Assembly (NCBI GenBank): GCA_046581755.1
Contig: JAYGFR010000131.1
Span: forward strand, 1 to 47,527
Direction of reading: 5' to 3'
DNA from: Nitrospinota bacterium
GTDB taxonomy: Bacteria > UBA8248
Length of the DNA stretch: 47,527 bases
The stretch's first letter is position 1, and the number at the start of each line of letters is the position of its first letter. The notes under the pieces were generated by a model that was not told the origin of the DNA, made no database searches, and saw nothing but the letters and a program-made list of their open reading frames with translations. Positions 1 through 45,756 of this stretch are shown piece after piece. Both the position numbers and the translations under genes were made by a program.

Positions 1-19
1 GCGCGGAGTGGATTACGGG

Positions 20-625
20 CTAGCTTTTTGGGCCGCTCTTTTTCTCGGCGAGCAGAGCCTCGATGAGGCGGATGGCTTCGGGGCTCTCCCAGTTCCGGTA
101 GCCGAGGCTTCCGCCGATGACGTAGCCCGAGCGGTTCACCAGGAAATTGGTGGGCGTGTAGCGGGCGTTAAACATGGGATAGACCTTGCCGAAAGGATCC
201 AGAAGGTTGGGGAAGGTCAGGCCGTACCTTTTCACATACGGCTTCACCAGGGATGTATTCCTGTCCATCGAAATCGCAACGACGACAAATCCAGCGCCGC
301 GGTATTTTTTGTACATATTTTCGAGAGCGGCCCGCTCCCTGGTGCAGTAGGGTCAATACGTCGTCCAGAAATTGATGAGAATGACCTTGCCGACCTGGTC
401 CTTAATCTTAAAGGGTTGATCGAAAACGTCGGGCAGGGTGAACGCCGGAAGGGGTACAGGCTTGAGGGCCTGGACCCTCATGTCGCTCATGAGGGAGGGC
501 ATGGTGGCGGCCTTGAGCCCGTCGGCGTGCTTGGCGGAGGCGGTCTCCCGGCCCCCGATCAGGGTTAAAGCAACAAGGAAGGACAACGCGGATATTATAT
601 TGATAAATAACGATTTATATCTCAC
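20..625 (-). CDS. TlpA/ResA-family thioredoxin-like redoxin, probable selenoprotein (UxxC) with N-terminal membrane anchor or signal
   Basis: ORFs 353..730 and 20..316 are in the same frame, separated only by TGA at 355-353. Readthrough gives GKVILINFWTTY-U-PYCTRERAALENMYKKYRGAGFVVVAISMD...YTPTNFLVNRSG. Start at GTG 625 is an estimate, placed just before the hydrophobic stretch. Confidence 0.85.
323..339 (-). promoter_or_regulatory. Candidate bacterial SECIS hairpin for the redoxin UGA
   Basis: GGGAGCG-GGC-CGCUCUC stem-loop starting 13 nt after the UGA, with G in the apical loop. Confidence 0.55.
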
Positions 626-760
626 ATAAATATCCACAAGACACCTTGGTCGGCCCGGAAAAATCCCACCCTTTAACCGCGGCGGCGTCAAATAATTCCC
701 TTCGTTATCCATCCTTGAAACGGCCGGCATCCTCGAAACGGTTGCCGATGGCCTTTCCGG

Positions 761-42936: not shown

Positions 42937-43267
42937 GCCTGTTTACCTCTTTCTCGAAAAATGGAAAAAATGGAAGCTCCGTGGCCTATATTTCATTTCG
43001 GCAAACAGGACCGGGCCTATCGGGGATGCTTCTTTTTGTCGAAAATGGGCGGGCCGCCGGAGCGATCTGGGCAACCATAGATTTTTACCACTGCCGGGCC
43101 GCTTTCACAAAGATTGCCCGGCCATTTCCAGGGTTTGCGCCGGGAACCTTGTAGATTGCCGATTATGGCAGGATCCGGGGGCGGGGCGTTTGCGGGCCCT
43201 CTCGGAAGAGCCGGCGTCTCCCATGGCGGGGCGGATGGCGAGGAGATAACGGAGGAGGTTGGTTCCG

Positions 43268-44603
43268 ATGGATCTTATGAGATGTAGCAATTTCGTGTGT
43301 AAAAAGTTGATTTTCCTGGCCGCCCTTATCGGCGTTATTAGCCGGATATACCTTCCGGGCCCGGCCGCCGCCGAGGAGAGTTCCCCTTCATCGCTTGAGC
43401 GAATAGCCGCCGCCGATTCCGTTCTCGGAACGGCGCTGGAATTAATGGAAATTCCCAGTCCATCGGGCCATGAGAGCCGGATGGCCGCGCTGATTTTGGA
43501 GAAACTGCGAGGGCTGAGCATAATGGCCTGGAAGGATGATTTTGGAAATCTGATGGCCAAAATCCCCGCGAGCCCGGGATTGGAAAAGGTTCCGCCGTTG
43601 CTGCTTGCGGCGCACATGGACATGGTGCCAGGGGATAAGAAAAATCCCCTGAAACCTATCCGCCCCCGCCTTATTCGGTCGGGCGGCGTCGAATGGATCG
43701 CCAGCGACGGAACCACTACACTCGGGGCGGGCGATAAGGCAGGGGTGGCGGCGATCATCGATGTCCTCTCCCGCATCACGGGAAAAGGACCCGGTTTCGC
43801 CGTTCGGCACGGGACCATCGAGGTGGCCATCACCCGCGAGGAGGAAACGACTGTCCAGGGGGCCAAAAATTTAGAAACGGCCCGGATTCCTCGAAATATG
43901 CGCTTATATTGGACGGGGAAAAGGTGTTCGAGGTCGTGTGGGAACTCGCGGGTGCCACCGAAGTGACCATCCGATTGCATGGGGGCCGTGGTGGTCACTC
44001 GGGCATCGATATCCACCGGCCGGACAATGTCAATGCGTTAAAAGTAATGTCCGAACTCGATATGCTCATCCCGCAAGGTGTGGTGAAGCGGAACGAGCGG
44101 GGGGTCGTCACTTCCATTAATGCGGGCCTTGTCGAAGGAGGGGTGGCGATCAACGCCATCGCCCGGAGGCCCGGATTTCCTACCTGGTACGGACCACCGA
44201 GCGGGCGGCGGAGGAAACTCTCCTCCGGGAGATTCGAGCGGCGGTCTCTCGCGTGGAGCGGAAATACCGCCGCCTTCAGAAAAAATTTCGGATCGAAATG
44301 AATGTCAATCATATTCTTCCGCCCTGGTCGGCGAAATCCGAGTCTCCGTTTTTTAGGTGGGTCCAAAAGGCCGGGGAGAGACTTTCCGGGAAAAAAATTT
44401 CTCCTCTTTCCATTCACGCCGGCGCCGAGGCGAACATTTATGCCAATAAAAGAAACGCCAAAGGGGAGTTCATCGAGCCGCTTCTCCTGGGCGTCGCCAA
44501 TCTTCATGCGATTCATACCACGCGGGAGCGAATTGATTGGCGCTCTCTCATTCAGGGCCGGGACTGGGTTCTTGGGATCATCCGCTTGATGGCAGAATTG
44601 TGA
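43268..44603 (+). pseudogene. M20/M25/M40-family metallohydrolase with predicted signal peptide and two apparent 1-nt deletions (~43890 and ~44164)
   Basis: SPSGHE, AHMDMV, GAGDKAG, REEE, LILDG, GGHSG, NAIA and HAIHT motifs spread over three consecutive frames. Confidence 0.82.
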
Positions 44604-44649: not shown

Positions 44650-45756
44650 ATGACTATTGCCGCACGGGCCGATGTTGTTGGGAGTCTTCTCCGCCCCCCG
44701 GATCTTCTCAAGGCGCGAAAGGATTTCGAGGCGGGGTTCATTTCCGAGGCGGAATTCCGCGCGGCGGAAGACCGCGCCGTCGATGATGCGATCACCTTGC
44801 AGGAGGAGGCCGGCCTCACGGTCGTTACCGACGGCGAGATGCGCCGGTTATCGTTCCAAAGTCAGATGACAGAGGCCGTCGATGGGTTCGGTGCGTATGA
44901 TCTCGACGCCTTTCTCTGGGGCAATTGGCGCGGAAAGAATGAGGAATGGCGCATCGCGCGTCCCCCGTCGCTGGGAGCCACAGGAAAGCTGAGGCGGCGG
45001 CGCTATCTTTCCAAGGCGGAGTATGAATATCTTTGCCCCCGTACGCGCCAAACGCCCAAAATCACCTTGCCCAGCCCGAGTCTTTGGGTGAACTTTTGGT
45101 CCAGCGAACTCTCCGGTGCGGCCTACCCCACTCTCGACAGTTTCCTGACGGATGTGGTCGATATATTGCGGGACGAGGTGGCTGAGTTGGTCCGCATCGG
45201 GGCCGCCTATATTCAACTAGACGCGCCGCATTACACGGCACTGCTCGATCCCGGGGGCAGCGCTTTTTATGAAAGCCAGGGATGGACGAGGGACAAATGG
45301 CTGAGTCTGGGGATTGAGATGGACAATGCCGTCATGAGCGGATTCGGCGGCGTTACTTTCGGATTCCACCTCTGACGGGGGAACCAGGACAGCCGGTGGC
45401 TGGTAGAGGGCGGATACGACGCCATCGCGAAGTCGGTTTTCAAGGGGATTCGCGCAGAGCGCCTGTTGCTCGAGTACGACGATGCGCGTTCGGGGTCGTT
45501 TGATGCGCTAAGGGACGTTCCTGACGATAAAACGGTCGTCCTCGGTCTCATCACCACAAAAAGCCCCCGTCTGGAAACCCTCGAAGCGCTCAAGCGGCGC
45601 GTAGATGAAGCCGCCCGGTTTATGCCGCTGGAACGGCTGGCGATCTCCCCTCAGTGCGGGTTTTCCACATCCATCGTGGGAAACCGAATTTCCATAGAGG
45701 ATGAAAAGAGAAAGTTGGGGATCCTCGCCGAAGCGGCCGAAGCTATCTGGGGATAA
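44650..45756 (+). CDS. Cobalamin-independent methionine synthase II (MetE C-terminal-like) family protein, probable selenoprotein
   Basis: VVGSLLRP, TDGEMRR, YIQLDAP, GFHL-TGA(45373-45375)-RGN, LLEYDDARSG and SPQCGFS all in one frame. Confidence 0.88.
45390..45402 (+). promoter_or_regulatory. Candidate SECIS hairpin for the MetE-like UGA
   Basis: CAGCC-GGU-GGCUG stem-loop starting 14 nt after the UGA. Confidence 0.5.

Follow-up and report, generated by a model that had tools for sequence, protein, structure and literature searches.

The window examined in this work is a stretch of 47,527 nucleotides from contig JAYGFR010000131.1 of a Nitrospinota bacterium (assembly GCA_046581755.1), and the element of interest in it is a gene for a protein related to the methionine synthase MetE, whose reading frame is crossed by a single in-frame TGA codon. 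As discussed below, this UGA is almost certainly read as selenocysteine (Sec), and the gene very likely encodes a selenoenzyme, as judged from its sequence and that of its homologs. The gene and its features are the following:

44650 to 45756, + strand: MetE-like gene, from ATG at 44650 to TAA at 45754-45756, 368 codons, a stand-alone PF01717 protein when read through the TGA
44683 to 44685, + strand: Ser12, predicted binder of the homocysteine carboxylate (Ser433 equivalent)
44836 to 44838, + strand: Glu63, predicted binder of the homocysteine amino group (Glu484 equivalent)
44911 to 44928, + strand: aromatic motif F88-L-W90-G-x-W93, subfamily-specific, candidate methyl-donor pocket
45220 to 45222, + strand: Asp191, predicted binder of the homocysteine amino group (Asp599 equivalent)
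45367 to 45369, + strand: His240, predicted zinc ligand (E. coli MetE His641 equivalent)
45373 to 45375, + strand: in-frame TGA, codon 242, predicted selenocysteine in the column of a zinc-ligand Cys
45390 to 45402, + strand: predicted bacterial selenocysteine insertion sequence (SECIS), with a 5-base-pair stem CAGCC/GGCTG and a GGU loop, the loop lying 19 nucleotides after the UGA
45472 to 45474, + strand: Glu275 of LLLEYD, predicted zinc ligand (Glu665 equivalent)
45655 to 45657, + strand: Cys336 of SPQCG, predicted zinc ligand (Cys726 equivalent)

The TGA (context FGFHL*RGNQ) is the sole internal stop of the 368-codon frame, which then runs on for 126 codons that include LLLEYD (E275) and SPQCG (C336). 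What the initial annotation had described, a single TGA exactly at the Cys of an H-x-C-R-G-N motif, an otherwise undamaged frame through the other ligands, and a hairpin 14 nucleotides downstream, was thus found at the locus as stated. The ordinary explanations would be a true stop (in a pseudogene or in a gene that has been split), an error of assembly, or another genetic code, and we consider these, taken together, extremely improbable. The codon is unchanged, TGA rather than TGC or TGT, in the contigs of three further marine DNA studies (X2, X3 and X4; those of a fourth DNA run, X7, do not cover it) and, at low depth, in contigs of two of four RNA-library runs, and an assembly or sequencing error was therefore rejected. 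Transcription cannot be read from the RNA-library contigs, which extend over parts of the gene with a depth of 2-5. Seven of the nine base differences found inside the gene in other runs are synonymous. Reading of TGA as Trp was also rejected, as all nine Trp residues of the gene use TGG and the homologs have Cys, not Trp, at this position. The frame downstream of the TGA is under purifying selection, as the ratio of nonsynonymous to synonymous polymorphism (pN/pS) is 0.13 after the TGA vs 0.10 before it in 66 Poribacteria pairs, and 0.28 on both sides in 27 pairs with the source gene. Translation could restart at least nine codons past the TGA at the earliest, yet the R-G-N-Q directly after it is invariant, and the same codon recurs in 37 loci of many phyla. 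A true stop would agree with the frameshifts that the upstream dipeptidase-like gene shows in the source assembly, with the lack of a match in four genomes of the same genus, and with the TGA-bearing genome G041, where neither selA nor selB is over cut-off. A genuine relic of this gene, however, looks different: L216 (G032:C1, 4294-4620, - strand), which lies a few kilobases from senA/senB, is a decayed C-terminal remnant (residues 259-367) with an internal TAG, and its residues 1-258 are unmatched.

[quoted passage not shown] The same 5-base-pair stem with a G-containing loop follows the TGA of the source genome's selD and of many of its other TGA genes, and the pattern is found after 0.48% of the 110,478 TGA triplets in that genome (0.08% with Watson-Crick pairs only), a background whose pattern was defined after the MetE-like and selD hairpins had been seen. 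When all 37 TGA forms were folded together with RNAalifold, a 5-base-pair stem (+15..19/+23..27) with a 3-nucleotide loop emerged, with 183 of 185 cells paired; it varies by wobble changes and, in two near-identical loci, by a single compensatory exchange of C-G for A-U, and 35 of the 37 forms carry the hairpin with five pairs and GGU. The third base of the loop codon, Arg249 (position +21, the middle of the loop), is a base other than C in 28 of 28 TGA forms but C in 33 of 54 Cys forms, which leaves 21 with another base, and the contrast was seen again in the held-out metagenome set (not C in 9/9 TGA vs 2/25 Cys forms); overall, CGC is used at this codon in 0/37 TGA forms and in 56/79 Cys forms.

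Some of our hairpin results speak against a dedicated signal. The segment from UGA to +45 folds with an energy of -9.3 kcal/mol, and the hairpin on its own is no more stable than shuffled sequences (z from -1.19 to +0.36 in four folding windows). The stem is largely dictated by the codons for S-R-W-L, and 27 of 54 Cys forms are able to form it as well. Tree-aware tests, in which there were only 4-5 supported independent pairs, gave no significant result; these pairs were never opposite for "+21 not C" and for the 15:27 pair, and sometimes opposite for "+21 G". Support for the predicted SECIS is accordingly comparative, and does not come from the single sequence.

The machinery needed to read such a codon appears complete. 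All of selA, selB, selC and selD were looked for in the source genome (G000, 96.5% complete) and all are present: selA and selB, over cut-off, on contig C136, the tRNA-Sec gene selC with a TCA anticodon on contig C264, and selD, over cut-off and itself with an in-frame TGA, on contig C268. A hairpin-based scan of this genome returned 106 TGA sites with open flanking frames, about 20 of which we take to be selenoprotein genes by motif (UGSC, GFULLTQ, UxxC, CxxU), with labels partly taken from the table in PMC13188914; the remaining sites look like chance. The genome is thus predicted to be rich in selenoproteins. TGA-plus-hairpin genes with UGSC/UGGC lie on contigs C89, C97, C108, C167, C201, C218 and C337, those with GFULLTQ on C202, C208, C226 and C381, and more on C60, C75, C134, C225, C256, C323 and C369; two further TGA sites with long open flanks, on C4 (- strand, 44903) and C11 (+ strand, 9507), have motifs that could not be assigned to a family.

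Alternation between TGA and cysteine codons at the very same column is the comparative evidence that carries most of the argument. Among 41 related genomes, four others have a close member of the subfamily, 68-70% identical; the codon is TGA in three of these and TGT in the fourth, and a phylum-wide search of 51 genomes returned the same five subfamily genomes only. Column 242 is TGA in 26 and TGC/TGT in 54 of the best 80 of 171 confirmed relatives in GTDB, and TGA also in G005; among the best 80 of 597 metagenome loci it is TGA in nine, all of them within the 34-locus RGNQxxRW subfamily (0/46 outside it). Every locus other than the resulting 37 TGA forms (26 from GTDB, the source gene, G005 and nine from metagenomes) has TGC or TGT there, and the column is Cys in all 120 best protein-database matches. 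The genome set discussed below consists of 82 loci (28 TGA, including the source gene and G005, and 54 Cys), as three of the four relatives' matches duplicate GTDB loci and were counted once. By record title, the TGA loci belong to Poribacteria (12), Acidobacteria, Chloroflexota, Methylomirabilota, Tectomicrobia, Nitrospinaceae and unclassified bacteria. In quick trees computed with column 242 masked, TGA and Cys forms interleave: the 82-locus tree calls for 10 changes, five of them forced by starred branches, and a 115-row tree that leaves out one short locus for 12, of which four are so forced; the trees do not tell the direction. Because the two forms swap repeatedly, Cys can apparently substitute for Sec. 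The only other stop in any match is in L069, a Poribacteria TGA form with a second TGA at query codon 129, and tandem arrays of two to three Cys-type paralogs, about 50% identical to the source protein, were seen in G030:C4, G032:C1:438572-441913 and G033:C125.

Consistent with decoding as Sec, selA is over cut-off in 25 of the 27 other TGA genomes; of the two that lack it, G046 has selB over cut-off, and in G041 there is no more than a partial match of selB type, together with a tRNA hit at the borderline. A point on the other side is that selA is also present in 39 of 53 Cys genomes, which leaves a weak contrast between TGA and Cys genomes (p 0.07). For comparison, BSepDB reports selA in 16,621 of 64,762 species (PMC13326102), and the excess in our Cys genomes may be explained by taxon bias. 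Genomes G101 and G102 (Cys loci L103 and L104), flagged as unpublished, supply two of the 54 Cys loci and two of the 39 selA-positive Cys genomes, as well as two of the 18 HAL-like and one of the 13 homocysteine S-methyltransferase neighbours mentioned below, and no conclusion rests on them.

With regard to fold, the read-through protein matches PF01717 (Meth_synt_2, the MetE catalytic domain) with 70 bits against a gathering threshold of 21, and among solved structures its closest relative by sequence is 1YPX from Listeria (E 1e-43), in which HICRGN lies opposite HL*RGN in the alignment. An AlphaFold2 model, built with Cys at position 242 and a 60-row alignment, has a predicted local distance difference test (pLDDT) score of 93.1, and its best fold matches are 1YPX and then the MetE catalytic barrel, with a template modelling (TM) score of about 0.75. 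The roles of the zinc ligands and homocysteine binders were assigned by alignment to MetE residues described in PMC7857596 and PMC539065. On this alignment codon 242 is equivalent to Cys643 of E. coli MetE and Cys620 of T. maritima MetE, a zinc ligand, in line with the initial annotation's statement that this Cys binds the catalytic zinc in MetE-type proteins. The predicted set H240, C242, E275, C336, S12, E63 and D191 is invariant in 120/120 of the best database homologs, His240 also in 60/60 aligned homologs, and Cys336 is Cys, never TGA, in every locus whose alignment extended that far. It is probable, on this evidence and taking decoding into account, that Sec at codon 242 is a zinc ligand. 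We also considered that Sec might be inserted and act as a free nucleophile or a redox switch rather than as a ligand, as catalogued selenoproteins are mostly redox enzymes (PMC13188914) and a disulfide joins the two zinc-binding cysteines of T. maritima MetE once zinc is lost (PMC539065). The full His/Cys/Glu/Cys set is, however, invariant, Sec is confined to column 242 and Cys forms are the majority, and we regard such a role as very unlikely.

The FLWGxW motif distinguishes the subfamily, as F88, W90 and W93 are found in 120/120 homologs and are missing from paralogs that are 40-53% identical; W250 and Y256 are further invariant aromatics. F88, W90 and W93, presumed from the sequence to lie at the active site, are our candidate for the methyl-donor pocket. 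Sequence and fold searches found no solved structure of the FLWGxW / RGNQxxRW subfamily, a search of the ESM Atlas with a Cys homolog (P0003) returned PF01717 clusters only, and in NCBIfam (June 2026) no model is over cut-off for the protein.

The closest known proteins, by both sequence and fold, are 1YPX, annotated as a [quoted passage not shown], and the YxjH-like PRK06520 and PRK06233 (E 1e-43, profile E 1e-69, TM 0.75), which share with the MetE-like selenoprotein a single barrel and the H-x-C-R-G-N, LEYD and SPQCG motifs. The selenoprotein, however, scores below both profile cut-offs (220.5 vs 313 and 203 vs 576 bits), and differs in its FLWGxW / RGNQxxRW signature, the TGA at the ligand column and the sen/egt neighbours discussed below. 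MetE itself (TIGR01371; 1T7L, 1XDJ) aligns at the zinc ligands and homocysteine binders, with a TM of 0.73-0.76 to the catalytic barrel, but the protein studied here, at 368 residues, is half as long, has no N-terminal folate-binding barrel and reaches 46.9 bits against the TIGR01371 cut-off of 929.95; with three NCBIfam "methionine synthase" equivalogs it likewise scores far below cut-off. The core synthases MesA-MesD are likewise stand-alone catalytic domains with the same functional residues and use a non-folate methyl donor (PMC7857596, PMC7005905), and their homocysteine-binding Ser, Glu/Gln and Asp correspond here to the invariant S12, E63 and D191. Identity with MesD was excluded, as the MesD structure 3RPD scores only 23 bits, and none of the MesA-MesD partner genes (CoFeSP, MesX) is among 79 scanned neighbours. 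The word selenocysteine is absent from the main text of PMC7857596.

The initial annotation had further proposed that Sec serves as a metal ligand in a non-redox enzyme of methyltransferase fold, and that this is an unusual role for a selenoprotein. The first part is supported, with zinc binding and the non-redox character drawn from homology; the second holds in a narrower sense. It is already known that Sec can coordinate Mo/W and Ni, and that other methyltransferases contain it (PMC13188914). In formate dehydrogenase (Mo/W), [NiFeSe] hydrogenase (Ni) and the predicted SaoB, SaoC and MbdU, Sec takes the place of a metal-binding Cys and the two are swapped across genomes, as they are here; the systems of known role among these are, however, redox enzymes with redox-active metals, whereas the metal predicted for the MetE-like protein is zinc, acting as a Lewis acid in group transfer. 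Similarly, the arsenite methyltransferase, MduS, HgcA and methylated-DNA-protein-cysteine methyltransferase of the 2026 catalogue also concern methyl transfer with Sec at a conserved Cys, but they belong to other domain families, none of them PF01717. The available portion of that review (PMC13188914; 119 prokaryotic families, Table 1, supplements apart) has no PF01717 or MetE-like entry, and no MetE-like selenoprotein is mentioned in the accessible parts of the deep-Sep paper (PMC12013277, text and four supplements) or of the BSepDB paper (PMC13326102, text and a possibly incomplete supplement). Literature listings, a scope that leaves most subscription papers outside, showed neither a Sec-containing MetE-like protein nor Sec bound to zinc in an enzyme of that kind. 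What appears to be new is therefore the predicted role of Sec as a ligand of the catalytic zinc in a MetE fold, of which we found no earlier description.

As to what the enzyme does, the source genome has MetH and several other PF01717 matches, which makes a housekeeping methionine synthase unlikely, and clues come from the gene neighbourhoods, where SenA, SenB, EgtD and SelD were called over NCBIfam cut-offs. Genes for EgtD, SenA and a betaine-type ATP-binding cassette transporter, which we take to be an ergothioneine (EgtU-type) importer, lie beside five of the 28 TGA loci. The order is egtD-gene-senA followed by the transporter in L051, L057 and L079, with L052 similar, and in L047 the gene is divergent from transporter-egtD-senA; the Cys locus L110 shows egtD-gene-senA-senB, and L101 egtD-gene. 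In 12 of 28 TGA loci, all from Poribacteria, selD and senB are the neighbours, in the order gene-selD-senB. An HAL-like lyase is found beside 18 of 54 Cys loci (actinobacterial Cys forms), a homocysteine S-methyltransferase-like gene beside 13 of 54 Cys loci and one of 28 TGA loci, and MttB beside two of 82 loci. Since both synthesis- and breakdown-type genes are nearby, what these loci share is most likely the betaine compound as such, and the recurrence of egtD, senA, senB, selD and the transporter in several phyla would tie the putative zinc homocysteine methyltransferase to histidine-betaine metabolism. At the genome level, senA is over cut-off in 19 of 27 TGA genomes vs 13 of 53 Cys genomes (senB in 16 vs 9), and within the phylum in four of five subfamily genomes vs 13 of 46 others, the relatives not being independent. 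The source genome itself has a transporter-egtD-senB-senA cluster with a betaine-type transporter on contig C118 (L123, 880-5905), from which its organism likely makes selenoneine.

In the set formed by L045, L051, L052, L057 and L079 (genomes G041, G045, G046, G050 and G063), four genomes have senA beside the gene and no senB match, and G041 has senB but no senA over cut-off; these gaps may reflect incomplete assemblies or a different selenium donor. A SenB match over cut-off in G068 (C1:2860652-2861584, + strand) contains one internal TGA, which could be a Sec codon or the mark of a broken gene.

Based on these data, we can outline a mechanism. SelB would, with hardly any doubt, read the in-frame hairpin and insert Sec at codon 242, and the selenolate would then very probably replace one thiolate on a catalytic zinc predicted to be held by His240, Sec242, Glu275 and Cys336. 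By analogy with MetE, this zinc would activate a homocysteine bound by Ser12, Glu63 and Asp191. The intact homocysteine site, the missing folate barrel and the invariant aromatics favour methyl transfer from a betaine compound, and it is an evenly balanced question whether the donor would be a histidine betaine (hercynine, ergothioneine, selenoneine or their S/Se-methylated forms), presumably bound by the invariant aromatic residues in place of folate; the full mechanism with such a donor falls just short of that balance. Speculatively, selenium might guard the metal site from irreversible oxidation or tune zinc-thiolate reactivity. Taken as a whole, the picture of an uncatalogued selenoprotein family of several phyla, with Sec on its catalytic zinc, acting as a missing selenoneine/ergothioneine methyltransferase that returns betaine methyls to homocysteine, is put forward tentatively.

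We acknowledge that several observations weigh against a role in histidine-betaine metabolism. No sen/egt gene adjoins the source locus, where the flanking genes are a dipeptidase-like gene and a convergent mlaA; 11 of 28 TGA and 34 of 54 Cys loci have none of the neighbours listed above, and neither has any of the nine metagenome TGA loci, many of which are short. Poribacteria make up 12 of the 27 TGA genomes, and without them the senA contrast shrinks to 7/15 vs 13/53 (p 0.12). Moreover, 13 of the 17 senA-positive genomes of the phylum, including all four of the same genus, have no match to the subfamily; the enzyme is thus not needed for selenoneine synthesis and would be accessory at most, and an obligatory role in that synthesis was rejected. 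Finally, N-demethylation of hercynine beside egtD would amount to a futile cycle.

EgtD uses three S-adenosylmethionine molecules per hercynine, and in the main rival reading the protein would be an auxiliary core methionine synthase with the same zinc-Sec site, which would turn the homocysteine that EgtD leaves behind into methionine, with a corrinoid protein or some other donor as the source of the methyl group. The invariant homocysteine triad, the direct contact of the gene with egtD in L051, L052, L057, L079, L101 and L110, and MttB directly upstream in L056 are all compatible with this view, as are the use of methylcobalamin by the characterised core synthases MesA and MesB (PMC7857596, PMC7005905) and the co-transcription of the related yxjH with luxS under a methionine T-box (PMC6004538). 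We nevertheless deem it unlikely, as no B12-binding family occurs among the 79 scanned neighbours (79 of 2,391 open reading frames), the source genome already has MetH, and both the Poribacteria selD-senB link without egtD and the HAL-like lyases would be left unexplained. Quite unlikely, in our opinion, is a zinc selenoenzyme that alkylates a thiol or selenol other than homocysteine, such as selenoneine, ergothioneine, a cysteine-type amino acid or coenzyme M. The strong link to the sen genes, the occurrence in nature of S/Se-methylated ergothioneine and selenoneine, and the presence in the superfamily of epoxide:coenzyme M transferase and of corrinoid methyltransferases, one of which methylates selenide (PMC10418091), would fit such a nucleophile, but conservation of Ser12, Glu63 and Asp191 in all 120 homologs argues for homocysteine.

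Whichever substrate applies, the predicted selenoenzyme would add to the prokaryotic selenoproteome a family that the 2026 catalogue, with its 119 families, does not list (PMC13188914), and Sec would be in an unusual position, where it is predicted to bind a catalytic metal that is redox-inert, in an enzyme of group transfer. Its natural Sec and Cys orthologs, 60-70% identical and swapped several times, offer a test of selenium use outside redox catalysis, and its neighbours provide a first substrate hypothesis for a large MetE-like branch lacking an assigned function. If our proposal is true, this would be a Zn-Se enzyme of natural origin, and it would genetically connect the selenoprotein branch of selenium biology with the selenium-metabolite branch. 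On the practical side, these genes would be truncated at codon 241 by gene callers that treat UGA as a stop.

Two other genes of the window deserve mention. The M20 dipeptidase-like gene upstream (43259-44603, + strand) is split over three frames in the source assembly, and the single-base indels at 43865, 43886 and 44161 seen within it in other runs imply that errors of assembly or differences between strains may account for some of these breaks. At 20-730 (- strand), a gene for a TlpA/ResA-like thiol-disulfide oxidoreductase has a TGA at 355-353 within FWTTY-U-PY-C, followed by a hairpin of the same type; it matches a known UxxC kind and is, by its sequence, a probable second selenoprotein gene of the window.
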